Shown piece by piece: positions 3 through 43,430 of a stretch of 53,288 nt of DNA. The notes beneath the pieces were generated by a model. It had not been told where the DNA came from, did no database searches, and saw nothing but the letters and a program-made list of their open reading frames with translations. The first letter of the stretch is position 1. Each line of letters opens with the position of its first letter. The stretch is from a virus (Duplodnaviria; Heunggongvirae; Uroviricota; Caudoviricetes): positions 1 to 53,288 of the IMG/VR virus record IMGVR_UViG_3300025133_006513, one strand, 5' to 3'. Position numbers and translations under genes: made by a program.

Positions 3-3000
3 CATCGCTATTTCCTGGACCCAGAGACTGGCATCTTTAGAGTCCAGTTTGGGCAAGCACGTATGCCGTTGATGCCAGTGCTCAAAGCACTGGGTGCCAC
101 GGACAGTCAGCTCCGTAAGGCGTGGGGCAACGAGTTATTCGTTGCCAACGCCAAGAAGACGGACCCGACTACGCTCAAGAAGCTCTACCGCAAGGTTACC
201 CGGAACAAGTCGCCTGAGAATGACGAAGAGATGCATCAGGCTATCCGGAACGCCTTCGCTGACATGGAGCTCGATCCCGAGGTTACTGCTCGAACCCTCG
301 GTAAACCATACGCCACTGTGAACCCAGAGGTTATCTTGGCTTCGACTGCCAAGCTGCTGCGGGTGCATAAGGGTGAGGAGAAGTCCGACGATCGTGATGC
401 TATGGCGTATCAGCGGGTTATGGGTCCAGAGGATCTATTCGCTGAGCGTATGCGTAAAGCTGGCGGTACCATGCGGAATGCCCTATGGAAAGCCACGCTT
501 CCAGGCAATCTAAAGCGTGTACCCCCTGGCCTGATGGACAAGATTGTCCGCGGGGCTATCATCGAGACAGGCCTGGGTAACCCCCTGGAAGAGATCAACC
601 CTGCGGAACTGTACGATCAACGCGTACGAGTGACACGCATGGGCGAAGGCGGTATCCCTAGTAACGACTCAGTGCCAGACGAGGCACGTAACGTACAGCC
701 AAGCCACTTGGGCTTCGTCGACCCAGTCCACACACCAGAATCAGGCAAGATCGGTATCGACGGACGCTTTGCTGTCAGAACCCTCAAGGGCAACGATGGC
801 CGGCTCTACGCTCGCTTCACCGATCCTAAGAATGGCAAACCAATCTGGAAGTCTCCCCAAGATGTTGCTGACGCGATCGTTGCGTTTCCAGGGGAGTTAG
901 AAAAGGGCGAACCTCATGTTCGTGTGCAGCATAAAGGCAAGCTGAAATTTGTTCCTAGGAACAAAGTTGACTATCAGCTTGGCCATATGACAGAGGCTTT
1001 CGGGCCCCTAGCGTCGATGATCCCGCTGAAGGGTGCAGCCTTCGGGCAGCGTATCTCTATGGGTAGTCGATTTCTTTCGCAGGCGCTACCGTTGGTCAAC
1101 GCAGAGTCCCCGCTCGTGCAATCGGGTGTCCCTGGTATGAAGGACACGTCGTTCGAAGACTTGCTTGGCGCCGATATGGGTGCTGTGAAGAGCGAAGTCG
1201 ACGGGACTGTGCTTGAGGTTACACCCAGTCACGTCAAAATACGAGGGAGGGATCGCCGTGTTCATTACGCCGAGCTCTACGAAAACCATCCGTATAACCG
1301 GAAAACCTTTGTTCACAATCGACCCACCGTTAAGGCGGGTGATGCAGTCAAAGCAGGACAACTGCTCGCTGCTTCCAATTTCACAGATGATGGAGGTACG
1401 ACAGCGCTTGGCAAGAACGCCCGAGTCGCGTACCTGCCCTACAAGGGATACAACTTCGAAGACGCAATCGTCGTCTCTGAGTCCTTCGCCAAGCGGGCTT
1501 CGAGCGAACACATGTACCAACACAGCCTCGATCTTGGCGAGGGCGTTAAAGCTAGCAAAAACGCTTACACCGCCATCCTCCCGGGTGAATACGATCGCAA
1601 ACAGCTAGATCGCTACGATGACGACGGAGTTATCAAGATTGGCGAGACAGTCCAGATGGACGAAGCACTGGTGCTGGCAGTGAAAGAACGACAGACGGGT
1701 CCACGACTTGGGCGACGTAAAGCCTCCTGGGGCGATGCATCGATTAAGTGGGAACACCATGAGGAGGGTATTGTTACCGATGTACACAAAGGCAAAAAAG
1801 GCTATTCGGTCGTCGTTAAATCCGTACACCCAACCAAGGTCGGCGATAAGTTCGCGGGTCGATACGGTGACAAAGGGGTTGTCGCAGCGATCGTACCCGA
1901 CGAAGACATGCCGCACGGGGCGGATAAAAGGCCCTACGAAGTGCTACTCAACCCGCTGGGCGTCATCGGCCGAGGTAATCCATCCCAAATCATCGAAACG
2001 CAGCTCGGTAAGATCGCCGCGATCACGGGCAAACCGTACAAACTGATTGACTTCGATGACTTGCGTGATCTTCGTGAGTTCACCGAGCAAGAGCTGCGTA
2101 AGCACGGGCTCAACGACACAGAGGACCTGATCGATCCTAAGACTGGGCGTACGCTCAAAGGCATCGAAGCAGGGAATCGATTCATGATGAAGCTCCACCA
2201 CACTGCAGAGGTTAAGCTCGGCGGTCGTGGTGCTGCTGGTGGTTATACGGCTGAGGGGGCACCCGCTAAGGGCGGAAAGTCGGGATCTAAGCGAGTTGGT
2301 ATGTTAGAGCTCAACGCTCTTTTGTCTCACGGAGCTTATCAGACTATCCGTGATGCCAACGTGGTACGCGGTCAGCGAAACGAAGATCACTGGCGAATGC
2401 TCATGTCCGGGTATACACCCCCAGAGCCTAAAGTTCCCTTCATGTACCAGAAGTTCATGGCACAGTTGAAGGGTGCTGGTATCAATCCAATCAAGGAGGG
2501 GTCCAAGCTCCAGATTCTGGCTATGACTGGCGAGGGGGCCAAAGAGCTTACTGGTAACAGGGAGATCAGAAGCTCTGAAACCGTCGACTGGCGTGTAAAC
2601 AAGCTCTCACCTATTAAAGGGGGTTTGTTCGACGAGGCCCTTACAGGTGGGCACGGAGGTAATCGCTGGAGTTACATCAAGCTACCAGAGCCTTTACCTA
2701 ACCCAGTGATGGAAGAACCTATCAGACGCATCCTCGGGCTAACGCAGAAACAGTACGCCTCTATCTTAAGTGGCGCAGACCACGTGCCTGGTCAGGAAGG
2801 ATTAACTGGGCCGATCGGTATTCAGACGGCATTAGAGGGGATCAACCTCGATAAGGAGATCGTCAAAGCCCGCGCGGATATCAAGTCAGGACGTAAGACA
2901 TACAGGGATAAAGCAGTTCGACGCTTAGAGTTCCTCAAGTCTGCCCAGAAGAACAAGCAACATCCTCGTGAGTGGATGATGGACAGAATCCCGGTATTAC

Positions 3001-3908
3001 CGCCGATCTTCCGTCCAGTGAGCATGTTCGCTGAGACTAACACGCAACTGGTCGATGACTCGAACTACCTCTACAAGGAGGCGTTCGAAGCCGCCGAGAA
3101 CCTAAAGGCACTCGGGAAGATCAGTGATGATGTGTCTGAGGAGCGATTAGCGGTCTACAAGGCTTTCAAGGCTGTCACCGGCCTGGGCGACCCTTTATCC
3201 CCTGAATTCAAGGAACAAGATGTCAAAGGTATCCTTAAGCACGTCTTCGGAACCAGTCCTAAGCATGGTACAGTGCAGAAGAAGCTGCTTGGTAGCACTG
3301 TCGACCTCGTCGGACGGGCTACTATTACGCCAAACCCTAACCTGGATATGGATCAAGTAGGGTTACCGATCGAGGAAGCGTGGACGCTGTATCAGCCGTT
3401 TGTTATTCGTAGGTTGGTTCGTCGTGGGATGGGAAAAGTCAAAGCAATGGAGGAGGCTAAGGCCCGATCGCCTTTAGCGTTGAAGGAGCTGCAGGGCGAG
3501 ATGAAAGAGCGTCCAGTGGTTATTAACCGTGCACCGGTATTGCACCGCTACGGGGTTATGAGCTTCTGGCCACAGCTTACGTCATCGAGCACGCTGGAGA
3601 TTCCGCCGCTAGTCGTCGGGGGTTTTGGGGCTGACTTCGATGGTGATGCGATGCAGTTTCACATCCCTGCGAGTGAGGGAGCAGTTGAGGAAGCAAAATC
3701 AACGTTGATGCCGTCACGAAACTTACACGCTGCTGGTGACTTCGATGTACACTATAAGCCGAGCCATGAGTATGTAGGCGGGTTATGGGCAGCGTCGACG
3801 AAGGACTCGAAGAAACCACCCAGAGTATTTAAGACAAAGAAGGACGCGATCGCTGCTTACCGCAAAGGATCGATCGATGTTGGACAGCGTGTTGAGATCA
3901 TGGAGTAA
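3..3908 (+). CDS. rpoB-rpoC fusion: Phage multisubunit RNA polymerase: beta subunit (5'-truncated at window edge) fused in frame to N-terminal half of beta'
   Basis: Frame is open from nt 3 to the ATG at 63, so the gene begins upstream. Beta motifs: RNVQPSHLGFVDPVHTPES, GYNFEDAIVVSE, GDKFAGRYGDKGVV, LLNPLGV, KRVGMLELNAL. Beta' motifs follow without a stop: GLFDEALTG, PVLPPIFRP, LLGSTVDLVGRATI, NRAPVLHR, catalytic GADFDGD (3627-3647). Confidence 0.96.
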   Translation, partial: HRYFLDPETGIFRVQFGQARMPLMPVLKALGATDSQLRKAWGNELFVANAKKTDPTTLKKLYRKVTRNKSPENDEEMHQAIRNAFADMELDPEVTARTLGKPYATVNPEVILASTAKLLRVHKGEEKSDDRDAMAYQRVMGPEDLFAERMRKAGGTMRNALWKATLPGNLKRVPPGLMDKIVRGAIIETGLGNPLEEINPAELYDQRVRVTRMGEGGIPSNDSVPDEARNVQPSHLGFVDPVHTPESGKIGIDGRFAVRTLKGNDGRLYARFTDPKNGKPIWKSPQDVADAIVAFPGELEKGEPHVRVQHKGKLKFVPRNKVDYQLGHMTEAFGPLASMIPLKGAAFGQRISMGSRFLSQALPLVNAESPLVQSGVPGMKDTSFEDLLGADMGAVKSEVDGTVLEVTPSHVKIRGRDRRVHYAELYENHPYNRKTFVHNRPTVKAGDAVKAGQLLAASNFTDDGGTTALGKNARVAYLPYKGYNFEDAIVVSESFAKRASSEHMYQHSLDLGEGVKASKNAYTAILPGEYDRKQLDRYDDDGVIKIGETVQMDEALVLAVKERQTGPRLGRRKASWGDASIKWEHHEEGIVTDVHKGKKGYSVVVKSVHPTKVGDKFAGRYGDKGVVAAIVPDEDMPHGADKRPYEVLLNPLGVIGRGNPSQIIETQLGKIAAITGKPYKLIDFDDLRDLREFTEQELRKHGLNDTEDLIDPKTGRTLKGIEAGNRFMMKLHHTAEVKLGGRGAAGGYTAEGAPAKGGKSGSKRVGMLELNALLSHGAYQTIRDANVVRGQRNEDHWRMLMSGYTPPEPKVPFMYQKFMAQLKGAGINPIKEGSKLQILAMTGEGAKELTGNREIRSSETVDWRVNKLSPIKGGLFDEALTGGHGGNRWSYIKLPEPLPNPVMEEPIRRILGLTQKQYASILSGADHVPGQEGLTGPIGIQTALEGINLDKEIVKARADIKSGRKTYRDKAVRRLEFLKSAQKNKQHPREWMMDRIPVLPPIFRPVSMFAETNTQLVDDSNYLYKEAFEAAENLKALGKISDDVSEERLAVYKAFKAVTGLGDPLSPEFKEQDVKGILKHVFGTSPKHGTVQKKLLGSTVDLVGRATITPNPNLDMDQVGLPIEEAWTLYQPFVIRRLVRRGMGKVKAMEEAKARSPLALKELQGEMKERPVVINRAPVLHRYGVMSFWPQLTSSSTLEIPPLVVGGFGADFDGDAMQFHIPASEGAVEEAKSTLMPSRNLHAAGDFDVHYKPSHEYVGGLWAASTKDSKKPPRVFKTKKDAIAAYRKGSIDVGQRVEIME

Positions 3909-4020
3909 GCCATGCCAGTAGTGCTGTCAAAATTTTCGTCAAAACCCAATACGGAATTGTGTAAACAATCAGCTACAGATATGCTGGTAAGATATCACTG
4001 ACCCAAATGGAGTTCGCCTC

Positions 4021-4746
4021 ATGGCTAAACACGAAATGAACATGACGCTTTTTGATGTCGCCGCGTGGCGACTGCAGGGCGAGGCAGAGAAGCAAGCCTT
4101 CGTCCCTCAAGGAGCGACCGACCCCGCCGCTGGCGGTGGAGCACCTCCAATGGACCCAGCAATGGGTGGCGCACCTCCAATGGACCCAGCAATGGGTGGG
4201 ATTCCCCCTGGCATGCCTCCTGGTGCACCTCCAATGGACCCAGCTGCAATGGGCATGCCTCCAGCAGCTCCGCCTGCGGCACCTCCCGCGGCCCCTGGCG
4301 CTCCAGCAGCGGGCGGCAAGCCCAAGATTGACCCAACCTTCATCTACATGGAGCTGAGCCGCGTGCGTAAGCTTCTGACGCACATGATGAAGCACACAGG
4401 CATCGACATGCCACCTGATATCCTCGACGACGGTGCGACGGCGATGATCGCCAACGGCCAGATGCCAGAGAGTCAACCGATCGGGCAGCCGGGTGCCGAG
4501 GGTGCTCCCCCTGAAGGAGGGGGAGCACCGGGTGGCCTACCAAGCATCGGGCAGTCGCCGGCGATCGATCCGATCGCTGCTGCTGGTGGTCCTGGAGGCC
4601 CTGGCGGTCCTGAGAAGGGTGCCGGTGATGTGCTTTCAATGTTCCGTGGGCCAGCACCTGCTGACGATGCTTCGCCAAACTACGCTGCGGCTGAGCAACG
4701 CATCAACGCACTATGTGACCTGTCACGAAGCCTCAACGGAAGCTAA
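4021..4746 (+). CDS. Pro/Gly/Met/Ala-rich low-complexity protein, putative internal head protein
   Basis: 241 aa ORF with GGAG RBS, APPMDPAMGG repeats and AEKQA at aa 22-26. Function is inferred from the motif and neighbourhood. Confidence 0.8.
   Translation: MAKHEMNMTLFDVAAWRLQGEAEKQAFVPQGATDPAAGGGAPPMDPAMGGAPPMDPAMGGIPPGMPPGAPPMDPAAMGMPPAAPPAAPPAAPGAPAAGGKPKIDPTFIYMELSRVRKLLTHMMKHTGIDMPPDILDDGATAMIANGQMPESQPIGQPGAEGAPPEGGGAPGGLPSIGQSPAIDPIAAAGGPGGPGGPEKGAGDVLSMFRGPAPADDASPNYAAAEQRINALCDLSRSLNGS
4141..4244 (+). repeat. In-frame 30-bp tandem repeat (two copies plus a partial third)
   Basis: GCACCTCCAATGGACCCAGCAATGGGTGG at 4141-4170 and 4171-4200; first 20 nt recur at 4225-4244; encodes APPMDPAMGG. 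Confidence 0.95.
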
Positions 4747-5007
4747 TTGATGATCGTTGAGTTGCATAATAAGCTAGGACAGCCCCAGCGTATTGAAGCC
4801 ACACGCATCGTAATACGCTCCCCTAACGGGGAAGCGTTATGCGTGGCGGTGGAAGCGGGGCCTGGCCAGTATTTCATCACACACCGTGGTGATGGGGACG
4901 AGGACATGAATCGATCCCTACGCTCGCTGGGTATTAATGAGACCGTCATCAGTGATATGCAAAATATGCCGAAGCCGCCAGGCACGCTGTGGACGCCGGG
5001 GAGTTAA
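4747..5007 (+). CDS. Hypothetical protein (86 aa) between the two beta' halves
   Basis: ORF abuts the upstream stop (TTG 4747 or ATG 4750) and fills the gap to the beta'C start. Confidence 0.75.
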   Translation: MMIVELHNKLGQPQRIEATRIVIRSPNGEALCVAVEAGPGQYFITHRGDGDEDMNRSLRSLGINETVISDMQNMPKPPGTLWTPGS

Positions 5008-5010
5008 CCT

Positions 5011-6894
5011 GTGCTGCGTACTACTATCGGACAGTTGATGACTAACGAGGCGTTGCCTCCCGATATGCGCGATTACACCCGGGTCATGGATAAAAAAGGA
5101 ATCACGGAGGTATTACGTGTTCTTGCCGAGAAACACCCAGACAAATACCGCGAAGTGGCTAAGAAGCTTTCAGACGTGGGGCGAGATATTGCTTACACTA
5201 CCGGCGGAAGCTCCTTTGGTCTTAAGCATATGCGTCCTACACCTTCTGTACTGATGTCCCGTCAGCGGTTGAATAGACGCCTCCGCGATATCCTCTCCAA
5301 CCCTCAATGGGATGATGATATCAAAGAGCAGAAGGTTGTTGAGGCCACATCGGTCGAACACGAGCGACTCCAGAAAGAGATCCTGGAAGAGGCTAAGAAG
5401 TCTGGGAACCCTCTGGCAGATCAGGTGGTATCTGGTGCCCGTGGTAACCCCGCTGGACTGAAACGCTTGATCGGTGGTGACATGATGTATGTCGATCACC
5501 ATGAGGATGTAATCCCGTTCCCTGTCCAGCGTAGCTTCGCTGAGGGCCTCGGCCCGGCCGACTTCTGGGCGTCGACGTATGGAGCCCGTAAGGGCTTGAT
5601 CGACGTGAAGTTCGCTACACAGGACGCAGGGTTCTTCTCCAAACAACTCAACCAACTGGCACATCGACTGCTCGTTACCCATCATGACGACGAAAACGAA
5701 GCAGATCCTACGGCACCTGTGCGAGGGATGCCTGTCGATGTAAGTGATGGCGACAGCGAAGGATCGCTGTTAGCCGCACCGGTTGGTGAGTATCCACGAA
5801 ACACCACGCTGACTCCCAAGATCCTCCAGGACCTGGAAAACCAGGGCATTGCGAAGATTTTGGTCAGAAGCCCTATCGTTGGTGGCCCTCCTGGTGGTGG
5901 TGTCTACTCCCGAGACGTTGGCGTGAGAGAACGAGGCGGTATGGCCCCGATAGGGGATATGGTTGGTATCGCCGCAGCACAGACACTGTCTGAGAAGCTA
6001 ACCCAAGGCCAGTTGTCATCCAAGCACTCAGGTGGTGTTAAGGGTGAAGCCAAGAGCGTGACAGGCTTCCAGCACGTCAATCAGCTTGTGCAGGTGCCCA
6101 AGACCTTTAAGGGCGGAGCAGCCCACGCACAGATCGACGGCAAGGTTACAAACGTGGAAGAAGCCCCGGCTGGCGGGCAGTACGTTACCGTTAATGCCAA
6201 ACGTCACTTCGTGGCGCCAGGCTTTGACCTCAAAGTTAAGCGAGGCGACCATGTCGAAGCAGGAGACGTCATCTCCGAGGGAATTCCCAACCCCTCGGAG
6301 ATCGTTAAACACAAAGGCATTGGGGAAGGGCGTCGATACTTCGTTGATACTTTTGCTGATGCTTATCGTGCTGGCGGCATGTATGCCAATCGTCGCAATA
6401 TTGAGCTGGTGGCTCGTGGGTTGATCGATCATGTCGAGATGATGGACGAAGATGACGACCACGTACCCGGCGATGTAGTTGGATACCAGCAGCTGGAAAC
6501 CAACTGGAAGCCCCGCGACGGCTCTCAACGACTACAACCAGATGAAGCGACGGGCAAGTACCTCGAACGCCCCGTGTTGCATTACACGATCGGTACGAAG
6601 GTAAAGCCATCAATGCTGCCACAATTCAAACAGTTCGGTGTTAATGACCTGGAAGTGCATGACGAAGAGCCCCCGTTCAAACCACATATGGTGCGAGCAA
6701 TGGCATCCATCGGACACGACCCTGACTGGATGACCCGGTTCCTGGGTTCCAATCAGAAGAAGAGCTTGTTGAACGCAACGCACAGAGGTGCTACATCTTC
6801 CGCGGAGAATACGAGTTTTGTGCCAGCAATGGCGGAAGGCTTAGATTTCGGGAAGACGTGGCCACAATCGATATTGAAGCCCCCTACCACCTAG
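5011..6894 (+). CDS. rpoC (C-half): Phage RNA polymerase beta' subunit, C-terminal half
   Basis: GTG start with GGGGAG RBS. TTIGQL (cf. TTVGR), SGARG, bridge-helix region STYGARKGLIDVKFATQDAGFFSKQL, trigger loop GIAAAQTLSEKLTQGQLSSKHSGG. Confidence 0.95.
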   Translation: MLRTTIGQLMTNEALPPDMRDYTRVMDKKGITEVLRVLAEKHPDKYREVAKKLSDVGRDIAYTTGGSSFGLKHMRPTPSVLMSRQRLNRRLRDILSNPQWDDDIKEQKVVEATSVEHERLQKEILEEAKKSGNPLADQVVSGARGNPAGLKRLIGGDMMYVDHHEDVIPFPVQRSFAEGLGPADFWASTYGARKGLIDVKFATQDAGFFSKQLNQLAHRLLVTHHDDENEADPTAPVRGMPVDVSDGDSEGSLLAAPVGEYPRNTTLTPKILQDLENQGIAKILVRSPIVGGPPGGGVYSRDVGVRERGGMAPIGDMVGIAAAQTLSEKLTQGQLSSKHSGGVKGEAKSVTGFQHVNQLVQVPKTFKGGAAHAQIDGKVTNVEEAPAGGQYVTVNAKRHFVAPGFDLKVKRGDHVEAGDVISEGIPNPSEIVKHKGIGEGRRYFVDTFADAYRAGGMYANRRNIELVARGLIDHVEMMDEDDDHVPGDVVGYQQLETNWKPRDGSQRLQPDEATGKYLERPVLHYTIGTKVKPSMLPQFKQFGVNDLEVHDEEPPFKPHMVRAMASIGHDPDWMTRFLGSNQKKSLLNATHRGATSSAENTSFVPAMAEGLDFGKTWPQSILKPPTT

Positions 6895-6902
6895 CCGTTG
6901 CC

Positions 6903-6930
6903 CTGACCTCTGCGGTTCTGTTACCATAAT
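6903..6930 (+). promoter_or_regulatory. Possible sigma70-like promoter upstream of the 797 aa gene
   Basis: CTGACC-N16-CATAAT in the intergenic gap; imperfect match. Confidence 0.3.
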
Positions 6931-6986
6931 AACAAGTCGCTTCGGCTAGGCTGGACGCCAAATTTTCCCAAGGACGAGGGTACCCC

Positions 6987-9380
6987 ATGAGCACTACGCA
7001 GCTCTCAAAGCCTGTTGCTCATTGGCAACGTGTTTGTCAATCGCATATTCGCACGCCAAATATTAAGCGTGCTGACCTGGGTGGTGATGGCCAATCCGTG
7101 CCGTTTGAGCAAGCATTTTCCAATCTTGCACACGCCTACCTTAAGGATCGCGCCCCGCAGCTTCTCGACCACGAACTGGGTTTCCAGCTCTTAGAGAAGA
7201 ACGAGGACAATGATCGCGCGGTCGGTATCTTTGGCTTCCGTGTCGGGAGTCAACTGCTCTATGCGCCAGTCTTCTTCCTCAATGGTGAATTGAAGGGTCA
7301 CGAGCTCCTGTATCTGAAGGACTCGGATACCTTTGTGCCGATGAAGGAGAACTGGATCAACTACGTGTTGAACCGCAAACCCAATATCATCGGTGAAGAG
7401 CTGGGCCCCAACCTGGCCAACGCAGGCGTCGATCGACCGAACATGGATGTCTTTCGTGAGTCGCCCGCCAAGTACGCAGCAGATCAGGCAGATCAGGCAG
7501 ACTGGCTGGCGCCGGCACTTCCCGGCCTGATGCACGTACTCGGCAACGCTATCCGCCCAGAGATGCAATGTCACGGGCTGGTCAAAGAGAACGCTGACTG
7601 TGCGCACATGTTCCTGCAGCTCCTGGACAAGCACCCCTCACTGGTATCCCCAGTCACAGAGGTCTACGGGAAGCAGATGATCAAGGACGCTATCGATACA
7701 GCGAAGACGCTGGATACGGTATCGCCCACGGGTGTGCCACGTAAACGCAAGTCTACCCACATCACCGGCAGCATCTTCACAGAGAAGTCTGCTAGCGATC
7801 TGGCTCAAGAACAACTTGCCGGTAAGCTCAAGATCTGGAAGTACGACGACAGCTCGCCAACGCGTGCCCGTCAGTGTGCAGCAGGGCTGACAGAGAAGCA
7901 GGCTCAGAACCTCAAGCGTGATGGTGTCTACGTCTCGGACGAACGCACCGAGGGCGAGGTCAGCAAAGCATACAAAGTCCAAGAGCCACTCAGCCTGATG
8001 AACCCGGACGCGAGCGGCATCTACCAGGTACTTACGAAGCCTGATGACTTCGAAGAGTGCCTGTACATCCATGGCCCCTTCAACGCCCGCGGCACCAAGC
8101 CCAACGGTGTGTTGGTGCGGATCGGCGATGGCGACAAAGCCTGGACAGAAACACACCCAGCTGCGATATACACGTCTGACGAGTATACCGGCGATACGTA
8201 CAGCGACTGGTTCGAGAAGCAACCTGAGGCAAAGAGCCTCTCCGTCGGATCGACTTACGTCCTGGTTGCCCCTAACGGCCAAGGCACAAGTGTGTTTGAG
8301 GTTGAGAGTACGCTACCGGCCGAGGGCGAGGAAAAAAGCTACGAGGTGAGGTGGCGTAACCGATGGGGTGCCCGCCGACCGGATCATCTGCCCCCAATTG
8401 CCGAACGCCGCCATGAGTATGATAGTGATTGTGCGGGTGCCGATACAGTTATGATGAATCGAATCAAGGGCCGCAAGTTCGTGGCTCGTCTTAACTGCCT
8501 GTACGTACCTGAGGGTGCCAAGGCCGTTAAGATCAAAGGTCCGGAGAAGCCCAAGAAGCACGATGGCCTCGCATATGTCGGCGATCACGAGGAATCAAGC
8601 GATCCTCCAGCCTTACGACCTGGCAACCACGTCGATCTCCAGATGGGCATCTACAAGATTTCGGAAGAACTGCAAGTCTTCAACAACGGCACTGAAGCTA
8701 TTGTTGATGGCCGACACATGACTCCGCTTGGTGCATTCGTACACTTGGTGCGCGACTACGGTTTGCGTGAAAAAACAGCCAAGGCATTGCTCACAGAAGC
8801 AGAGCTCAAGCGGGGTGTTAAGTGTCGTGTGAAGATGGCGTCGCCATACCAGGCACTCGGGCATGCCCCGACAGCGCCAGCGTTCCCTGAACCTGATCGT
8901 GGTACGGATATGTTCATGGGCTCAAACGTGCCCACTACGAACAGCTTCCAAGGCGATGAGATGGAGCTACCCGTCCAAGGGATGCAGGGTTCACCTAACC
9001 GACAACTGATGTCGGACCCTGTTGAACCACAGATGGGCCAACAGATACAAGAGGCTGCCCAGACAGGCCAGAAGGAGGTACTCGATACCGCGATGATGTC
9101 GAACCTGTTGAAGGGGACACAGAATGAGACGCTTATCGACAAGCACCTGTCGAACCTGATGAAGGGGCTCGATAGCCTCGGTCGCCTGTTGTTCAACATG
9201 TACTGGCACCACGACAAGTTCGAGGACCGGTATGGCGGCAATAACCTGCCAGAAATGACCGACGCCATGCGGAATGCCTTTGAGTCCTTGGGCGACGTTA
9301 CCCTCGAACTCAAGCAGAAATCTGTCGAGCCTTACCCAGATGAAGGTGTTGACATGGGCTTCGGCGAAGGCGAAATGTAA
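6987..9380 (+). CDS. Large putative internal head protein (797 aa)
   Basis: Long ORF with an N-terminal NIKRA and about 7 K-x-A motifs; no recognisable enzyme motif; lies in the head cluster. Confidence 0.75.
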   Translation: MSTTQLSKPVAHWQRVCQSHIRTPNIKRADLGGDGQSVPFEQAFSNLAHAYLKDRAPQLLDHELGFQLLEKNEDNDRAVGIFGFRVGSQLLYAPVFFLNGELKGHELLYLKDSDTFVPMKENWINYVLNRKPNIIGEELGPNLANAGVDRPNMDVFRESPAKYAADQADQADWLAPALPGLMHVLGNAIRPEMQCHGLVKENADCAHMFLQLLDKHPSLVSPVTEVYGKQMIKDAIDTAKTLDTVSPTGVPRKRKSTHITGSIFTEKSASDLAQEQLAGKLKIWKYDDSSPTRARQCAAGLTEKQAQNLKRDGVYVSDERTEGEVSKAYKVQEPLSLMNPDASGIYQVLTKPDDFEECLYIHGPFNARGTKPNGVLVRIGDGDKAWTETHPAAIYTSDEYTGDTYSDWFEKQPEAKSLSVGSTYVLVAPNGQGTSVFEVESTLPAEGEEKSYEVRWRNRWGARRPDHLPPIAERRHEYDSDCAGADTVMMNRIKGRKFVARLNCLYVPEGAKAVKIKGPEKPKKHDGLAYVGDHEESSDPPALRPGNHVDLQMGIYKISEELQVFNNGTEAIVDGRHMTPLGAFVHLVRDYGLREKTAKALLTEAELKRGVKCRVKMASPYQALGHAPTAPAFPEPDRGTDMFMGSNVPTTNSFQGDEMELPVQGMQGSPNRQLMSDPVEPQMGQQIQEAAQTGQKEVLDTAMMSNLLKGTQNETLIDKHLSNLMKGLDSLGRLLFNMYWHHDKFEDRYGGNNLPEMTDAMRNAFESLGDVTLELKQKSVEPYPDEGVDMGFGEGEM

Positions 9381-9390
9381 AAGGTAAAAC

Positions 9391-9855
9391 ATGCACATTT
9401 ACAAACGCGAATTTGCCGAGTCTGAAGGGACAGAGCTGATTCTACCTAGCGGTACCACTGAGCAGTGTTGGGCCATTGGCTTCCCTCCTGAAGGGAAGAT
9501 CACTCGCTTCATCCTGCAGCAATCAGCTGGTTCAAACGTAGGGGCCACGGTGAATCTGCTTGATAGGCAGGTATGTCAGGCCGGTAGCGGCAGCTCCGCA
9601 AGTCTGTCTGCGGCAGATCCTATGGCTATCGAACTAGCACAGATCTTCCCTGAGCAAACGCTAACCTCCGGCAATACATTGTCGTTGCGTGCGGGCCTGG
9701 ATGACGGCGGGCCGTGGAGTTACCGTAACCGTGAAGGCAGCTTCTCTGTGCCTGTGCGTGCGGTATACCTCTTCCTGAACATCGATGCAGGCAACGCTGA
9801 TGGCAAGCAGTTTGAGTTAGCTATCGAGTGCCAAATGGGTGGTGAACTTAACTAA
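9391..9855 (+). CDS. Hypothetical beta-rich protein (154 aa), possibly structural
   Basis: Continuous + strand ORF with a Ser/Gly linker (GSGSSASLS). Confidence 0.75.
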   Translation: MHIYKREFAESEGTELILPSGTTEQCWAIGFPPEGKITRFILQQSAGSNVGATVNLLDRQVCQAGSGSSASLSAADPMAIELAQIFPEQTLTSGNTLSLRAGLDDGGPWSYRNREGSFSVPVRAVYLFLNIDAGNADGKQFELAIECQMGGELN

Positions 9856-9857
9856 GC

Positions 9858-9881
9858 AATCTTGTTCAGCTGAACAAAATC
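9858..9881. promoter_or_regulatory. Palindromic operator-like motif, copy 1
   Basis: AATCTTGTTCAGCTGAACAAAATC with a perfect 16-bp palindrome at 9862-9877; ends 1 nt before ATG 9883. Confidence 0.7.
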
Positions 9882-9882
9882 T

Positions 9883-10833
9883 ATGAGCATCCTGGTAAAC
9901 AGACCTGATAACAAAAGGCGTCCAGCAAACTGGCGGTGGATGCGAGCGTGCGAACTTGCAGACGGAGCACGCTTAGTCCGCGGTCGCGATGATGAGATTG
10001 TGCGTTTTGCCAGTAAATTTCGTCGTCTGATGGACCGATGTGAATCGGACGAGGATAAGCTGGAGGCGCTTGACGCACAACCCGCGATGTTCGAAGCATA
10101 CACGATCTACATGGGTGAAGATGATGCGAGCGAGGTTAAGTGGGAGCTGGAAGCACGACTGCTTGGCGGCGAACCTGTAGCCTCGATCGAAGCGAAGCTG
10201 GGAATCGACCCTGCTACGATCTTCACATATGAGCGTGTGTTCTTCGATGTACTGAGCCGACGACACTCTACGAGCTTAATGGTCCATGTGGTGATCGGAC
10301 GGTCTGTACAGACTGGCCTTGCGGAGCGCGAGTACGACTGCCTATGGAAGCTCTTTAGTTATTTCGCCGGTATCCCAGTGCTGGACGCCTATATCTGGAA
10401 GTTTAATGGCGTGAAACACGTTGAAAGTGCAGATGGGGTGCGGACGGCATTCCGAGAAATTGCAAAAGATACCATAATGTCAAAGGCAGCTGTCACTGCG
10501 TTGACGCTACCAGCTAACTGGCAGAACAATGAGTTGATCCTGGGCACATGGCAGCAAATATGTGGGCAGGAGCAGATGGCCGGGCAAGCTAGTGGTGGTA
10601 CTGAAGTGATGATGCAGAACGTCGCTGTTTTGGTTGAAGGGTTCCAGCCGCTACTGCACAAGCACATACACGGCGTGGATCCAACACCAGGCGGTATTAT
10701 CGATGAGATCGAAGACACAGGTGTACGGTTACGCTCTGACGAGCTAGCTGCTATTGCCACAGGCAACGATGTGTCTGGGTTTGAACACTTCATTACCGCT
10801 AAGTTCCCTGATTCCCAAGGTGAGGACAAATGA
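9883..10833 (+). CDS. Protein with a putative helix-turn-helix (terminase small subunit-like or regulator)
   Basis: 316 aa; EPVASIEAKLGIDPATIFTYERVF resembles an HTH; no Shine-Dalgarno upstream. Confidence 0.6.
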   Translation: MSILVNRPDNKRRPANWRWMRACELADGARLVRGRDDEIVRFASKFRRLMDRCESDEDKLEALDAQPAMFEAYTIYMGEDDASEVKWELEARLLGGEPVASIEAKLGIDPATIFTYERVFFDVLSRRHSTSLMVHVVIGRSVQTGLAEREYDCLWKLFSYFAGIPVLDAYIWKFNGVKHVESADGVRTAFREIAKDTIMSKAAVTALTLPANWQNNELILGTWQQICGQEQMAGQASGGTEVMMQNVAVLVEGFQPLLHKHIHGVDPTPGGIIDEIEDTGVRLRSDELAAIATGNDVSGFEHFITAKFPDSQGEDK

Positions 10834-12557
10834 GCAACATTCCGAGACTAAGCAAACAGAGCGAGGAGTTAATCAGCTCCGCACTGTCTGCTGTAACGGA
10901 GCGCACAAACAGCGGTGAGAGTCCAAACGATGCGATCGTAAAGGTTGCATCTGATAAGGGCATCACAGCTGGACACGTGCGACTCATGGTGCGAGCGTTT
11001 AACAACGGCCGCAGCCTGGGGCATATCCGTGAACACAGCGGACTCCATGAAAAAGCAGCATCGTTTTCCCTGGCAGATGCCGGTGAGATCCTTGAGCGTA
11101 TGTTCCCGTCTAAGATTCCAACGCAAGCTGAGAAGCAGGCGTCGGTCGCTGTCGGGTCAGACTACTCTCGATCGCCGCAAGCCTGGCTGAAGCGACGCGC
11201 AGGCGGTAAGGTTCGCACAGAGATGGTCAAGACAGCCGCGGCGGCAACGCCAAAGCAACGACCAGCCTCTGCGTACGAATACCGCGACGGGCGTAAGGCT
11301 CTCAGCAATCTGGCTGATATCCGCCGGGAGCATGATCGCGTGAAAGACGCCGCGATCAAGGCTGCTTACAAGGTGGCTGCTGACGTCAGCGAGCTTGGCG
11401 AATACTTCCGCCGGCCAGACGCATTGCCCGCTGCAGAGGTGGCTACGAACGCTGCCTACATGTACGGGGAACCTGCGAATAAGCTGGTCACCCACGCTGG
11501 TGCCATGCAGAAAAGTGCACGAGTAGCCAACAGGGCACGACCCGTTGACTGGAATGCTACACCTTACTCGTTGATCAAACAAGCACTCAGCAGCATGACT
11601 GACTTCACAATGAAGCGGGCATCGCTCGATACACATGCGAGTGGCTTGGCTGAAAAGAAAGCGGAGGAACTCCGCCCTTTTGGGTTAGGCCTCGAGAACG
11701 TGATTACCGGCTCGCTATGGGACAATCAATCGCAGATTGAGAAGCAGGCTGTTGGCCTGTTTGGTCTGGGGTTGGTTGGAGCGACCGGTGGTATGGCTCG
11801 AGGCATGGCACAAAAGATGTCACCGAAGACACGTGAAGATCTTGTTCAGGATCGATTGTTTGAGCTATCTAGCCCGCAGCATGAGGATAAGTTGCGGGCT
11901 ATCAGGGTGCGGACTATGCTGCACGAATTGATGAACTCGGATCCAATCATCAGCGGTTATGACCCACAGGAGGTGCTGGAAGCGTATAACCACCTTGCTG
12001 AGGTATCACCGCAGGTAATGCAGCAACGTATTACCGCGCAGGGTTTGCTGCGTAAATACCTGGAACAAGCGTCAGCACTCGACGCATTCGATGCAAACGA
12101 GATGTTGAGTGTAGAGAAGGGCATCACTGAGCGAAACTCACCGAAAGCCTTGTCGAAGACACACCAGACGGGTGCTGCCCGTGAGCTTGGTCCTGCAATC
12201 GGTACCGACACAGCTAAAGGGGCAGATGGCGACCCGCTGGCTAAGGCGTTAAGTGGTTACGAACGTATCACTGAAAAGCCAGCCGCGAACGGCAAGAGTC
12301 TCGCTGAGCAGTACGATAGGTTAGGATGGCGAGAAGCACTCTTTGGTGGTGAGAAGAAGGAACCAGAAGAGGACTCAGGCCCTGGGGTTGTAATTAGTGA
12401 CAAGCGCCCAGAGAAACCAGAAGCAACGGAAGAACCCGAAGCTACGCTACCGCCACCACCTGCACCAATGGATCTCGACGCCTGGTTCGCAGACTCGAAC
12501 GCAGACGCAAGACAACAAGAGAAGTCTGACCTTGAGCAGGGTATTTTCCCCACGTAG
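10830..12557 (+). CDS. Putative internal head/ejection protein with a Gly-rich hydrophobic segment
   Basis: 575 aa, about 14 K-x-A motifs, no Cys; VGLFGLGLVGATGG follows IEKQA; ATGA overlap with the upstream gene. Confidence 0.75.
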   Translation: MSNIPRLSKQSEELISSALSAVTERTNSGESPNDAIVKVASDKGITAGHVRLMVRAFNNGRSLGHIREHSGLHEKAASFSLADAGEILERMFPSKIPTQAEKQASVAVGSDYSRSPQAWLKRRAGGKVRTEMVKTAAAATPKQRPASAYEYRDGRKALSNLADIRREHDRVKDAAIKAAYKVAADVSELGEYFRRPDALPAAEVATNAAYMYGEPANKLVTHAGAMQKSARVANRARPVDWNATPYSLIKQALSSMTDFTMKRASLDTHASGLAEKKAEELRPFGLGLENVITGSLWDNQSQIEKQAVGLFGLGLVGATGGMARGMAQKMSPKTREDLVQDRLFELSSPQHEDKLRAIRVRTMLHELMNSDPIISGYDPQEVLEAYNHLAEVSPQVMQQRITAQGLLRKYLEQASALDAFDANEMLSVEKGITERNSPKALSKTHQTGAARELGPAIGTDTAKGADGDPLAKALSGYERITEKPAANGKSLAEQYDRLGWREALFGGEKKEPEEDSGPGVVISDKRPEKPEATEEPEATLPPPPAPMDLDAWFADSNADARQQEKSDLEQGIFPT

Positions 12558-12582
12558 TAAATCAGGTTTAATGGAGTCCGTA

Positions 12583-13854
12583 ATGGATTACGACAATCTC
12601 ACATACGCTGACGCCAAAGGCATGCTCAAGCAAGCTGACGGCGACTGGATGCAAGCTTTAGCCCAGGGGGCTAAAGACTTCGGCAATACGGCTGTGCAAG
12701 GCGCTAAAGACCTTGGCAATATTGCTGTGGAGTCTTTCAACAATCAAGATCACAGGATCCCCTGGCATGCAGGTCTGGGTGCTCTCACAGGGGCAGGACT
12801 TGGTGCCGTCTCATCGAGGTTCCAGCCTAAGAAGCGACGCAACACGCTGGGGCGTATGCTGACTGGCGGTATGCTCGGGTCACTTGGTGGGCTCGGACTC
12901 GCGGCTGCAACTGATACAACGATCGCCGACAACCAGGCGGCTGATACAAAAGCGAAGCAAGATAAGGTGGACATAGCTACGTTCGAAGATTTGAATAATC
13001 CAAGCCCGCCCCTGACGGTGGAGCAGATAGTTATGGACCTAGGTAACGCAGGGCGTGATGCGTACGTAGGGGTGCGCGATCACTCAGACGTCGAAGGTAA
13101 GCTGGGCGATATAACCACCCGCGGCGGGCGGTACCTAGCGAACCTATACACCGGCACGGGTACCGATGAATCTAACAAAGCGTGGGCGAAATCTACGCCT
13201 GTGTTTGGTCAGTTTGCTGACGATGAATGGGCGGGCCCCCTCGCTAACCCATCACCGTACCTAGGTGCGACTATGGGTGCTTATCTTGGCGGCTGGCGGC
13301 ACCGGCCCGGGCGGTTAGCGGCTTATATCCCACGCTTTGGGCAAGAAGCGTTCTACAAGGCGGTGCAGAAGGACTTACAAAAAGCCAATCGAGGGCAAGG
13401 CCACATGTCTGTTCCGGATGGCGCTACGGATGGGAAAGCGACACTGACAGCCCACCAACTGCGTGACGCTCGCACTGCCAAAGTTAACCATGAAAAAGCA
13501 CAGAGGAAACCTAACACAGACGGCACACTGACACCGGCTGGACAGCAGGAAAAAGCATTCCTAAGGCGGATATTCAAAGGCCCCGGCACTGCCGCCGCGT
13601 TGAAGGGGGACTACCCTGGAGCCACGCATACCGACCCTAACTGGGACGATGCGGTGCAGCGGCAACGACGAGTCAAAGCCACCAAGTGGAAACAGATACG
13701 CAAGGCGGGGCTGTACGGATTACTCGCACACTTAGGTATACGGTTCACCCAAGACATGTATGGGGACCGCCCTGACGCGGTGATGCGTGAAGCACTACGC
13801 GCCGCGGCGAGAACTAAAGCAATAGCGGACGCGGCTGCGGCCGCGGAGCAATAA
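12583..13854 (+). CDS. Putative ejection protein with glycine-zipper membrane segments (423 aa)
   Basis: Start re-called at ATG 12583 (GGAG at 12573-12576, after the upstream stop). MLKQA at aa 14-18; GLGALTGAGLGAV, GGMLGSLGGLGL, LGATMGAYLGG; no Cys. Confidence 0.75.
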   Translation: MDYDNLTYADAKGMLKQADGDWMQALAQGAKDFGNTAVQGAKDLGNIAVESFNNQDHRIPWHAGLGALTGAGLGAVSSRFQPKKRRNTLGRMLTGGMLGSLGGLGLAAATDTTIADNQAADTKAKQDKVDIATFEDLNNPSPPLTVEQIVMDLGNAGRDAYVGVRDHSDVEGKLGDITTRGGRYLANLYTGTGTDESNKAWAKSTPVFGQFADDEWAGPLANPSPYLGATMGAYLGGWRHRPGRLAAYIPRFGQEAFYKAVQKDLQKANRGQGHMSVPDGATDGKATLTAHQLRDARTAKVNHEKAQRKPNTDGTLTPAGQQEKAFLRRIFKGPGTAAALKGDYPGATHTDPNWDDAVQRQRRVKATKWKQIRKAGLYGLLAHLGIRFTQDMYGDRPDAVMREALRAAARTKAIADAAAAAEQ

Positions 13855-13889
13855 GGAAGGACCATTCCTTAATCGTAAGGTAATAACAC

Positions 13890-15389
13890 ATGGCACATAC
13901 AAAACTCATCACACCTGGATCGCAGAACTTCCACGAGCCTATCGCGCAACGTGTGAAGATCTCCGGCGGCAGGCTGCGCGGTCTTGATCTCCAAGACTTC
14001 GTTAAGCGTGCATCTGTGCAATTCATCGATAAGATTGCATCAGTCAAGCTGCAACCAGGCGAGGTACCTGTACACCTATTGGCTGTCGGTGCTGAGGAAT
14101 ACTACGGGTTCAATCGTAACGGTGATGGCTTCAAAGAGGCTGTATGCAAGGAGTACCATCCTACCTTCGAGAAGTTCGCCCGCTGGTACCGTGACCACCA
14201 GAACAAAGATGTGAGCAAGGGCCGCGGTATCATCAAGGCATCTGCCTACAATGGTGACATGCGACGTATCGAGCTGCTGGTAGCCCTCAACGGCACCAAA
14301 GAGGCTGCTGATCGCAATGGTGGCTTGGTTGCCGACGAAGAGCTGGAGAAGCTCGCCAAAGACGAGGATATCCCTGTATCGATGGCTTGCCGTGTCAGTC
14401 ATGACGTTTGCTCTGGCTGCGGGAACAAAGCTAAGAATCGATCGGAATACTGTGGTCCAGAGATGTGTAAGTACGGCGGTTGCCGCGATAACCTCGCGAA
14501 GACCTTCGACGATGGCACGACCCTGGGCGTCTACAACCCCGATCCCAGGTTCTTCGATATCAGTAAGGTCTTTCGCCCAGCAGACAGAATCGCCTATACT
14601 CTAGGTATGGCAAAGGCAGCAGCCGACTATCAAATGCTTCTCAAGGAAGCAGGTGACATGTACGGTGCCGATCGCAGCTCTGCTGCACTTGCCGACAAGA
14701 TGGGTGTGACACCGCCGCTCTGGTTGCTCTCTGACGGTCCTTGGGCTGACCCCAAGATTGTTGGACAACTCAAGATGGCGAACGCACTCATCAACCTTGA
14801 AGAGGAGCTTAACCAAGATACAACGCCTTCAAGAGCATCCCGGGCGTTTATGTCAGAGGTTCAACCTCTGCGAAACGATGCCCCGGATGTAAGACAGGGA
14901 CCATTCAAACTTGCCCACGTTGTGACAGCATTGGCTGCAGAACGATGCATGCTGCCGGTGGATACTTTCATCGCCATGCTGGCGGGCAACGAGAATGTGA
15001 AAACAGCAGCTGACGCCGTCACAGCACGACTCTCCGGAATCTACAATCGATTGGCGTCGGACCCTACGTTGGAGAACGATCTGCGGAATAACCCTTATTT
15101 ACCGGGTCCCCCAGCTCCTCGCCGCGTAAAACACTGGGTGTTGAAGCACGCCTCTGAGTGGTCGCTCGATAAGAGTAGCGTCGTTCAAAGGCTTCAACTC
15201 TCGACGTTACGACATCCGGCACCCCCTAAGGGTAACCGGGAAATGTTGAAGATTGCGATGGAGGATAGCAGCGAAGCATTGGCCAAACAGTACGCTCTGT
15301 ACCAGCTTGGTTTCCTCACTGCTAACGCTGAACAACCCGAAGCTACGTTCATGCAGGAAATGGCAATACGGTCTAATATCGCCATTTAA
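13890..15389 (+). CDS. Prohead maturation serine protease (HK97/assemblin-type) with a Cys-rich insertion
   Basis: WYRDHQN (candidate His), VSMACRVSHDVCSGCG (candidate Ser plus Zn ribbon), FFDISKVFRPAD; immediately precedes scaffold and capsid genes. Confidence 0.85.
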   Translation: MAHTKLITPGSQNFHEPIAQRVKISGGRLRGLDLQDFVKRASVQFIDKIASVKLQPGEVPVHLLAVGAEEYYGFNRNGDGFKEAVCKEYHPTFEKFARWYRDHQNKDVSKGRGIIKASAYNGDMRRIELLVALNGTKEAADRNGGLVADEELEKLAKDEDIPVSMACRVSHDVCSGCGNKAKNRSEYCGPEMCKYGGCRDNLAKTFDDGTTLGVYNPDPRFFDISKVFRPADRIAYTLGMAKAAADYQMLLKEAGDMYGADRSSAALADKMGVTPPLWLLSDGPWADPKIVGQLKMANALINLEEELNQDTTPSRASRAFMSEVQPLRNDAPDVRQGPFKLAHVVTALAAERCMLPVDTFIAMLAGNENVKTAADAVTARLSGIYNRLASDPTLENDLRNNPYLPGPPAPRRVKHWVLKHASEWSLDKSSVVQRLQLSTLRHPAPPKGNREMLKIAMEDSSEALAKQYALYQLGFLTANAEQPEATFMQEMAIRSNIAI

Positions 15390-15411
15390 CGAACCAGTAG
15401 CAGGTTATGCC

Positions 15412-15441
15412 TTGACGGCATGACTGCTTTTACGACAAAAT
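15412..15441 (+). promoter_or_regulatory. Possible promoter for the scaffold-capsid genes
   Basis: TTGACG-N18-CAAAAT in the intergenic region; GGAGG RBS before 15495. Confidence 0.35.
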
Positions 15442-15494
15442 AAACCACGACGGGTGCAAATTCAAAAGCCCGAAGTTCACCGGAGGATAACTTA

Positions 15495-16757: not shown

Positions 16758-16770
16758 TTTCACCCAAAAC

Positions 16771-16797
16771 CCTGTTCTCACTATCGAGTGAAATAGG
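16771..16797 (+). other. Intergenic RNA hairpin
   Basis: CCTGTT-C-TCACT-ATCG-AGTGA-AATAGG, 11 bp with one bulge and one G.U pair. Confidence 0.6.
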
Positions 16798-16825
16798 TTA
16801 ATCTGAGTGAACATGGAGGATAAAC

Positions 16826-17227
16826 ATGTCCACAAGTTCCGCACCACAGAAGGTATTAGCTCACCTTCGCATGTCTAACGAGATTGCCAAGCGTCACCAG
16901 AATCACCTGGAAAAGACAGCAGCAGTCTCCGCAGCCGCGCGACAGGCAGCTCCTGAAGCTATCGCAGCTTTGGTTGCTAACGAGCGTGTCTTCGAACATC
17001 AACAAGAAGCTGTCTTGGAGAAGATCGCGGGAAGCCACGTGGCTTGCCTCGAGTTGATCCGAGACTTGGCTAAGCATCGGAACGCCGCGGAGCTTGACTC
17101 CATCGGCTCTCCTGCTGGCCAGGAAAAGACAGCCTCAGCCGGTAGCTCCATCACTGGTGCTGCCGTAGCAGACTTCGATGAAACGGAGTCTGGAGACGCT
17201 TTCCGTCGAAAGTTGCTGGGTCAGTAA
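16826..17227 (+). CDS. Small head-associated protein (133 aa)
   Basis: GGAGG RBS; LEKTA, LEKIA and QEKTA motifs. Confidence 0.8.
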   Translation: MSTSSAPQKVLAHLRMSNEIAKRHQNHLEKTAAVSAAARQAAPEAIAALVANERVFEHQQEAVLEKIAGSHVACLELIRDLAKHRNAAELDSIGSPAGQEKTASAGSSITGAAVADFDETESGDAFRRKLLGQ

Positions 17228-17246
17228 CTTTTTGAAACTAAACTTC

Positions 17247-17265: not shown

Positions 17266-17294
17266 TACTCTGTCTTGACATTGGAGGTCACACG

Positions 17295-17971: not shown

Positions 17972-18898
17972 ATGTCTTCGCCCTCTAGCGTTCAAGTCCT
18001 GAACGAAGAGCTGTTCGCGCAGCTCGAAACGCCGGGGATGGAGAAGAATGCATTAGACGCGGTGAACGAATTCACCCGCGTTCGCGTTCGTGAGGATGGC
18101 TTCTACCGGAAGATCATCCCGCCAGTTCAAGTCAGCAATGATGACCTCGACCGTCAGGTCGACACGGATAAGCCCGTGATCGTTGTGGACAAGGAGCCTG
18201 GTTCTCCTGCTGCTATCAGCATTCCCTTCGCCACGTTGCCGATCAACGTGTACATTCGTGGTCCTCGTTACCGCGTGATGTTCGATCGAATCGTGACACC
18301 GCGTTTCGTCAAGGATATTGACGAACTACGCACATGGCAGATGGATATCCGCCAAGTGCTTTCCGACAATGCTATCAAGGACATGCTCGCGGAAGAGGAC
18401 AGTAAGTTCCTCACAGCCGTGAACACCGCTCTTGTTGGCGCCAACCAAATTGTGCCTACCTCTGGTGTTATCCAGTGGGAAACCGTTTGGGGTGGTATCA
18501 GCCGCGATACTGTCCAAGAAGCGTTGAAGATCATGCCCAAGACTCCGTCTCACCTCGAGACGAATACTGTGCTGGTCAACAACGTCACCATTCGCGAAAT
18601 CCTAAAGTGGGGTTACGACGAAGCTGGTGGATCGCTGTCTGGCGATTTTCTGAAGAATGGTTGGTCCGAGATCGACCTGATGGGTGTCAAGTGGGTCGTT
18701 ACAATCAAGCGTGACTTGGTTCCTGACGACACCATGTATTTCTTCGGTGACCCTAGGTTCATCGGGAAATCGTATCTTCTCGAAGATACGACGATGCACA
18801 TCAAGAGAGAGGCATTCATGATCGAGTTCTTTGCATATGAAACATGCGGCGGAACAATCGGTCATACGGGTGGCCTCGCTCGTGCTGACTTCGCGTAA
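17972..18898 (+). CDS. Major capsid protein (HK97 fold, compact 308 aa)
   Basis: Protease-scaffold-decoration-MCP synteny, a strong AAGGAGG RBS and a downstream hairpin; RIVTPRFVKDIDELRTWQMDIRQVL pattern resembles HK97/encapsulin-type shells; MEKNA at aa 23-27. Confidence 0.85.
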   Translation: MSSPSSVQVLNEELFAQLETPGMEKNALDAVNEFTRVRVREDGFYRKIIPPVQVSNDDLDRQVDTDKPVIVVDKEPGSPAAISIPFATLPINVYIRGPRYRVMFDRIVTPRFVKDIDELRTWQMDIRQVLSDNAIKDMLAEEDSKFLTAVNTALVGANQIVPTSGVIQWETVWGGISRDTVQEALKIMPKTPSHLETNTVLVNNVTIREILKWGYDEAGGSLSGDFLKNGWSEIDLMGVKWVVTIKRDLVPDDTMYFFGDPRFIGKSYLLEDTTMHIKREAFMIEFFAYETCGGTIGHTGGLARADFA

Positions 18899-42689: not shown

Positions 42690-43430
42690 ATGCCAAAGAA
42701 TATGCTAGAGCCTGACTACCAGTTGCCATATGACAATTGGGTAGCTGATCCATCCCCTACGAACACTGGGCAGCTGATTAAAGCTGTCAAACCGGTGCTG
42801 AGTTCAGCGGTGCGAGCGTACGGGGGTACGTCTGCCAGGAGCACGAACATTAAGTCACAGGCCAAGCGTATGGCTGCCGACGCCTTCAGTTCGTATGATC
42901 CAGCACGGGGCACATTGAAATCACACCTCATGTCACGCCTTCAGCGGTTACGCCGAGTGGCAGCCCAGCAGCGGCAGGTCATCCGTGTCCCAGAGCAGGT
43001 AGCTCTCGATCAGATGCGATCGGACGCTGCGACACGTGAATTGGAAGAGAGCCTGGGTTATCCTCCATCAGACCAGCAACTCGCGGATTACACGAATTTG
43101 TCGCTTAAACGCCTCGCATACATCAGAGGGAGTGAGCGCCCACTCGCGGAGAGTACGATTTCGCGTGGTGGCGAGGAGGGCCTTGGTGGCTACGATCCGC
43201 GGGTTCGATCGCTAGCAAAACCCGCAGACGCGTGGGAGGAGCTTATCTACGATGACATCGATGAGACTAACCAGTTCATTATGGAGCGTGTGCTCGGAAT
43301 GCACGGACATCAGCCAACCAAGCCCAGTCAGGTGGCTGTGATGTTGAAAATTAGCCCTGCCGCCGTAAGCCATCGCATGGCCCAGATTCAAGCAAAACTG
43401 GACAAGCGAGAAGACTTGGGGATGATCTAA
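42690..43430 (+). CDS. Sigma70-family sigma factor (group 3, FliA/WhiG-like)
   Basis: Region 2 LIKAVKPVLSSAVRAY...YDPARG; IRVP; region 3 LEESLGYPPSDQQLADYTNLS; region 4 HTH TKPSQVAVMLKISPAAVSHR; GGAG RBS. Confidence 0.9.
   Translation: MPKNMLEPDYQLPYDNWVADPSPTNTGQLIKAVKPVLSSAVRAYGGTSARSTNIKSQAKRMAADAFSSYDPARGTLKSHLMSRLQRLRRVAAQQRQVIRVPEQVALDQMRSDAATRELEESLGYPPSDQQLADYTNLSLKRLAYIRGSERPLAESTISRGGEEGLGGYDPRVRSLAKPADAWEELIYDDIDETNQFIMERVLGMHGHQPTKPSQVAVMLKISPAAVSHRMAQIQAKLDKREDLGMI

Follow-up and report, generated by a model that had tools for sequence, protein, structure and literature searches.

A two-chain phage RNA polymerase without cysteine and without the canonical zinc sites of beta'

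The window analysed here corresponds to bases 1–53,288 of the linear virus record IMGVR_UViG_3300025133_006513 (153,465 bp, estimated completeness 71%). It opens with two genes encoding the beta and beta' parts of a multisubunit RNA polymerase (RNAP) in which both canonical zinc-binding sites of beta' are missing. Cysteine is entirely absent from the two chains (1301 and 627 amino acids, aa), a point overlooked in the initial annotation of this DNA. The explanation that we favour, and consider reasonably probable, is that the enzyme is delivered by the virion and subject to an N4-like avoidance of cysteine, which finally removed the second zinc site. The elements of the two genes are the following, site I being the N-terminal four-cysteine zinc domain of beta' and site II the second zinc site, with residues of site II numbered in the 627-aa open reading frame (ORF) aligned to E. 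coli beta' C814/C888/C895/C898.

3..3908, + strand: beta fused to the N-terminal part of beta' (beta'-N); Pfam Rpb2_3, Rpb2_6 and Rpb1_2; beta and beta' matches in the PDB
2586..2594, + strand: zipper-like Asp-Trp-Arg, aligned to E. coli beta' N45-Y46-R47, adjoining the deleted site I domain
2619..2684, + strand: site I stump with the six-residue turn GHGGNR (2649–2666), located by alignment
3627..3647, + strand: catalytic Mg-binding motif GADFDGD, three Asp intact; DFDGD in 120/120 homologues of the fused chain
5011..6894, + strand: C-terminal chain of beta' (beta'-C), 627 aa; Pfam Rpb1_5; beta' matches in the PDB
5674..5700, + strand: first half of site II, VTHHDDENE; Asp227 at the C814 position, variable in the clade
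5866..5922, + strand: second half of site II, RSP..VYSRDVG stretch; Gly291, Tyr299 and Asp302 at the C888, C895 and C898 positions; predicted local distance difference test (pLDDT) 86–95 in the AlphaFold2 (AF2) model

The GADFDGD motif together with Rpb2_6, Rpb1_2 and Rpb1_5 identifies a two-barrel multisubunit RNAP. The 5' end of the fused gene is truncated by the contig start; the full-length chain of L003 (4528–8898, 1456 aa) is likewise devoid of cysteine. An aromatic residue, usually together with a basic one, is retained at the zipper position beside site I, the Trp being nearly invariant among 94 homologues. The model of beta'-C matched bacterial beta' with Z ~29 and an rmsd of ~22 A owing to domain placement; such whole-chain matches, with their large rmsd, serve only to confirm the fold. 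The first residue of the catalytic motif is Gly where E. coli has N458, and the 120 homologues show 86 Gly, 29 Asn, 3 Ala and 2 Ser at this position. Related loci were retrieved with an alignment query, a single fused-protein query having returned none.

The initial annotation had proposed that the N-terminal four-Cys domain was deleted and replaced by GHGGNR, and alignment with E. coli beta' bore this out. GGLFD begins at position 2619 and WSYIKL occupies 2667–2684. E. coli beta' has 38 residues between G63 and M102, including C70, C72, C85 and C88, and the window enzyme has six, so that 32 residues of this canonical bacterial domain are deleted. In the AF2 model the stump is a short loop running into a strand (pLDDT 86–94). 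Site I is absent from 120/120 homologues of the fused chain and from every two-chain enzyme examined, including those of Salmonella phage Arash, of Vibrio phage D69 and of the L108–L111 group. A motif search for a separately encoded site I domain in the six frames of the contig gave two matches, both in short frames beside stops and none in a real ORF. Four near-complete relatives and Arash were searched with the PF04997 profile, which matched nothing beyond the fused gene (in one relative, nothing at all).

Site II had been described as Cys-less as well (VTHHDDENE and the second half), correctly: all four ligands of this canonical feature are replaced in the alignment, by Asp, Gly, Tyr and Asp. 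Cysteine occurs at these positions in none of the 111 aligned close beta'-C homologues and in none of the 149 cluster representatives, nine of which are gapped at the last site II motif. The His pair of VTHH is not conserved among homologues. AF2 predicts both altered regions with confidence, its models match bacterial beta', and both losses are common to all close homologues examined. Canonical zinc is very probably absent from the window RNAP.

The absence of cysteine extends far beyond the ligands. From the non-ligand cysteines of cellular RNAPs (0.43%), 8.9 residues would be expected in 2083 aa where none is found (P ~1e-4). The rest of this genome would predict 34; the 0.43% value was used instead, the genome-wide baseline of 1.6% overstating the expectation. 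The fused-chain family holds 15 cysteines in 170,249 aligned residues, the intein-free beta'-C homologues contain 0.01%, and non-ligand cysteine is depleted approximately 40-fold. The inteins, which are spliced out, contain 1.9% cysteine, against 0.04% in the long unrelated C-terminal extensions of beta'-C. Over 80 viral loci the RNAP chains show 0.02–0.05%, compared with 2.1% for the neighbouring protease-like gene and with 0.9% and 0.5% for another two genes of the head module. The purge is thus selective for the polymerase chains, the kind of depletion seen in the ejected RNAPs of N4-like phages. In these, the virion RNAPs (vRNAPs) contain 0.00075% cysteine compared to 0.865% in their proteomes (PMC11445570), and cysteine suppression is a hallmark of the ejected proteins, the reason given being that they cross the disulfide-forming periplasm (PMC11445570, PMC3715699). 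Three further genes of the window are listed below.

13890..15389, + strand: prohead-protease-like gene, homologue of Arash gp222; cysteine retained (2.1% in homologues), serving as a control
17972..18898, + strand: HK97-fold major capsid protein, homologue of Arash gp226 (E 9e-37); NF042927 match below cut-off (E 3e-7)
42690..43430, + strand: sigma70-like factor, 246 aa, no cysteine; homologue of Arash gp10 and likely partner of the RNAP

The sigma-like ORF is free of cysteine in 6/6 close homologues and in Arash gp10.

The distribution of the losses across relatives gives their order. Both zinc sites are kept in cellular beta' and in the phage enzymes of TM30, YerA41, RP13 and IME392. In the Arash clade the four site II cysteines are kept in 120/120 sequences, with just seven other cysteines in 72,993 residues, and in closer sister groups that keep site II the intein-free beta'-C holds exactly four. 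For a tree, the zinc columns were taken out of the alignment, a quick IQ-TREE search was made, and cellular beta' and TM30 served as the root; nine Arash-clade rows, seven gappy or divergent rows and two near-duplicate outgroups were left out. The 36 site-II-less rows formed a single branch (SH-aLRT 99), nested among lineages that keep site II. Because sister clades keep the site II ligands as almost their sole cysteines, the purge preceded the loss of site II; free cysteines and site I went first and, in the window's clade, site II last. Sites I and II were lost in separate events, probably for different reasons. L115 may represent another loss of site II. In the group formed by L108 (3428), L110 (851) and L111 (3466), beta is split further and the fused chain, which starts mid-beta, measures only ~995 aa; site I is absent there and site II present. 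In Vibrio phage Va2 (L094 3734–7312), beta' is unsplit and keeps site I, and three of the four site II cysteines are apparently lost. A search among viral folds turned up no closer structural relative devoid of the zinc sites.

The link to the virion comes mainly from phage Arash, in which ten genes of the window phage have homologues, including those for the capsid, portal, terminase, protease-like protein and sigma. In the spectra reported for Arash particles (PMC10585845), the RNAP chains gp206 and gp216 accounted for 3516 and 1210, the sigma gp10 for 467, the capsid for 1333 and the portal for 877. Both RNAP chains and the sigma are therefore present in the preparations, gp206 being the most detected protein. 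We computed spectra per residue of ~2.3 for gp206 and ~2.0 each for gp216 and gp10, similar to one another, above the portal (~1.5) and about half the capsid (~4.3). A second sigma, gp196, does not appear in the portion of the Arash proteome table that is listed. By analogy, packaging of the RNAP in the particle of the window phage is likely.

A sequence motif points in the same direction. K-x-A/S, a motif class picked after being seen, occurs 45 times in the head-module proteins (window 4021–19375) for 18 expected, a 2.5-fold excess, with no enrichment elsewhere in the genome. One protein outside the window (G000 64473–65687, − strand) has eight occurrences for 1.9 expected, and Arash gp220 and gp222–224 are also enriched. 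Among the relatives of beta'-C (P0241–P0387), 107 of the 149 cluster representatives carry C-terminal extensions of 170–1700 aa, mostly unrelated and Cys-poor. The motif lies within the first 70 residues of 75 of these 107 extensions (local shuffles: mean 33, maximum 47), and an unbiased scan of the junctions between beta'-C and extension ranked K-x-A as the top pair. It probably represents the cleavage site of the prohead protease, and such a site at the junction would place beta'-C inside the prohead. The extensions are possible cargo packaged with the RNAP.

Several observations weigh against delivery by the virion with cysteine avoidance. The capsid and other structural proteins are likewise Cys-poor (the Arash capsid has none), and low cysteine may therefore mark residence in the particle, not transit through the periplasm. 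The Arash particles were purified by sucrose gradient only and yielded 116 proteins including metabolic enzymes, and the authors allow for co-purification (PMC10585845). Arash retains site II, so that its loss is unnecessary for packaging. Va2 has seemingly lost site II while 17 cysteines remain, with no purge. In the RNAP chains of the window itself, K-x-A/S is not in excess. The quick tree came with a long-branch warning at the outgroup. The sequence losses, with their distribution and their order on the tree, the selective purge and the one RNAP of each complete relative are established; packaging in the window phage, passage through the envelope, disulfide avoidance as the cause and the absence of any bound zinc are what we infer.

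The most serious competitor, which we judge unlikely as a full account, is that the enzyme was functionally streamlined for reasons that have nothing to do with ejection. A phage having its own sigma and promoters could dispense with the domain that steadies upstream DNA and serves as a dock for host factors (RapA, ribosome coupling, antitermination); site I would be deleted, and drift would subsequently take site II as well, the fold being by then held by other contacts. The loss in Va2 without a purge and the possible second loss in L115 are in keeping with it. The non-virion RNAP (nvRNAP) of phage AR9 lacks the N-terminal zinc domain (PMC7618050), and an E. coli RNAP deprived of this zinc-binding domain (ZBD) could be produced and assayed, the listed roles of the ZBD being regulatory (PMC8501970). 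For these two reasons the loss of site I may reflect reliance on the phage's own sigma factor and promoters. For site I alone, streamlining is as likely as the explanation that we favour. However, it leaves unexplained the depletion of non-ligand cysteine, the Cys-poor extensions, the Cys-free sigma, and the sister clades in which the four ligands are the sole cysteines.

Adaptation to zinc scarcity is improbable. The phage would save zinc in a marine host, in the manner of the zinc-free paralogues that exist for ribosomal proteins, in which Cys-to-Asp and Cys-to-aromatic swaps are typical. The swaps in site II resemble these, and the runs with the best coverage of the window are marine metagenomes. 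The loss of non-ligand cysteine is not predicted by such an adaptation, however, and because the genome retains many CxxC proteins (ten ORFs with at least two motifs, the portal and a primase-like zinc finger among them), zinc economy is unlikely to be the main cause.

It is about equally doubtful that a metal site was rebuilt from His and Asp, giving a Cys-free but metal-binding enzyme. The candidates would be Asp302, at the C898 position, which is invariant, new to the clade and the sole new invariant residue at a ligand position, and the His of the site I stump, kept beside an invariant Asp in 119/120 close homologues. However, of the three remaining site II positions one varies and the others are Gly and Tyr; the conserved His218 and Asp226 near site II also occur in relatives retaining the Cys ligands and so predate the loss; and Arash and D69 have Pro in place of the stump His. 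In the alignment of homologues no set of His or Cys residues substitutes for the ligands, which agrees well with the earlier statement that no canonical zinc site is present, and a rebuilt site is probably not there. Gene decay or misassembly has practically no chance of being the explanation and is ruled out by conservation, since the frames are open, the catalytic Asp triad is intact, an identical beta'-C protein occurs on six contigs, contigs from independent marine runs span site I (X3, X4, X5) and site II (X3, X5) without a difference, hundreds of homologues carry both changes, and nothing was found in favour.

We propose the following scheme for virion delivery under cysteine avoidance. 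The single RNAP of this Arash-related large phage, made of two chains and a phage sigma, would be packaged in the head as a holoenzyme, delivered into the host with the DNA, and would there start transcription. Selection against cysteine, as in the N4-like ejected RNAPs (avoidance of disulfides in the particle or the periplasm), would first have stripped the non-ligand cysteines. Early in the lineage with split beta', the surface four-Cys domain of site I would have been deleted down to a short turn. Site II would then be the last group of cysteines, swapped in the window's clade for a metal-free fold in which Tyr at the C895 position probably fills the cavity, the invariant Asp at the C898 position probably assumes the hydrogen bonds of the thiolate, and Gly-rich turns close the loop. 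The initial annotation had suggested that zinc was lost to ease unfolding and refolding during ejection. The link to ejection gains indirect support from the cysteine purge, the position in the head module and the Arash proteomics, but the role given to zinc is too simple, as the Arash enzyme keeps site II and is nonetheless present in the particle preparations, AR9 lacks site I in a non-virion enzyme, and Va2 seems to show the opposite pattern. A bolder version, which we offer tentatively at slightly less than even chances, is that the beta/beta' RNAP of an uncultured clade works without zinc, cysteine or alpha, is loaded into the head with a Cys-free sigma and refolds after injection, the sister clades representing the intermediate stage. 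Equally tentative, as part of the same reading, is a cargo fused to beta'-C and released by the protease in many relatives.

Other features of the locus and its relatives may be mentioned. Between the two RNAP genes, window 4021–4746 encodes a conserved Pro/Gly/Met-rich repeat protein, Cys-poor in relatives (0.05%). Inteins are common in both RNAP chains of relatives (P0127–P0234 and others), with several sites in the fused chain. Further Cys-free ORFs, at window 10830–12557, 12571–13854, 38088–40076 and 26855–27508, are candidate ejection proteins; the one at 12571–13854 weakly matches a glycine zipper (NF053611, E 0.025). The portal homologue (G000 131970–133985) carries two CxxC motifs, a possible zinc-finger insertion. 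A PHROGs search gave no names for the head-module genes. The labels of contigs binned into metagenome-assembled genomes span many phyla, and therefore no host was assigned.

The two zinc sites of beta' are regarded as common to cellular multisubunit RNAPs, and site II was reportedly tied to enzyme assembly by Markov and colleagues in 1999, going by the title of their paper. A natural RNAP lacking both sites, with relatives keeping one, makes the role of site II and of its replacing substitutions directly testable. If true, the sister clades would form a stepwise series for the removal of a zinc site thought necessary for assembly. The enzyme also offers a minimal, oxidation-proof RNAP of two chains, and a model for the injection and reassembly of a multisubunit enzyme, a question flagged as open in PMC7598289. 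The surprise is limited by precedents for each ingredient, AR9 for site I and N4 for cysteine avoidance. A targeted literature search found no paper on a multisubunit virion phage RNAP lacking cysteine or zinc, and the trait is apparently unpublished.

Compared with bacterial RNAP, the window enzyme has in common the fold, the catalytic triad, the zipper position, the bridge helix and the trigger-loop region of beta'. It differs by the absence of both zinc sites, by the split of beta' and by the fusion of beta to its N-terminal half. Bacterial RNAP has an alpha subunit, whereas no alpha gene was found for the window phage: the PF01193 profile matched nothing in the contig of the window, itself 71% complete, nor in Arash, TM30 or three near-complete relatives. 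A divergent alpha or the host alpha may serve the enzyme.

Among phages whose RNAP can likewise be aligned with bacterial beta and beta' are the mReC phages (PMC7481178, which does not mention zinc or cysteine), RHph_TM30, YerA41, RP13 and IME392. The last four, which are cultured, have a near-bacterial beta' with both four-Cys sites and a normal cysteine content. The capsids of the mReC phages are of the Gp23 type, which the window's clade does not have: PF07068 gave no match in its own contig, three near-complete relatives and Arash, and matched in TM30, the positive control. The RNAPs of the jumbo phages AR9 and phiKZ also have a split beta' but consist of four to five chains, with two RNAPs per genome, and the phiKZ nvRNAP has both zinc sites (PMC8287921, PMC7618050). 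The window phage has one RNAP, of two chains, together with a recognisable sigma70-like factor; a single PF00623 locus was found in each of four near-complete relatives and in Arash, indicating one RNAP per genome, and an identity of the Chimalliviridae/AR9 type was rejected. The N4-like (Schitoviridae) vRNAP is Cys-free and travels in the particle, from which it is ejected (PMC11445570, PMC3715699), but has an unrelated single-subunit T7-like fold, and the likeness is convergent and compositional. The closest known system is the lineage of Arash (gp206 and gp216, sigma gp10; OQ632216, PMC10585845) and the Vibrio phages D69, D181 and D148. It has in common with the window phage the fusion of beta to beta'-N, the separate beta'-C (31% identity over the whole chain), the deleted site I, the near-total cysteine purge, and homologous capsid (gp226-like, HK97-type), portal, terminase, protease-like and sigma genes. 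Arash and D69 keep site II, the cysteines of gp216 being only C232, C284, C291 and C294, whereas the window's clade, nested within this lineage, has lost it as a derived trait.

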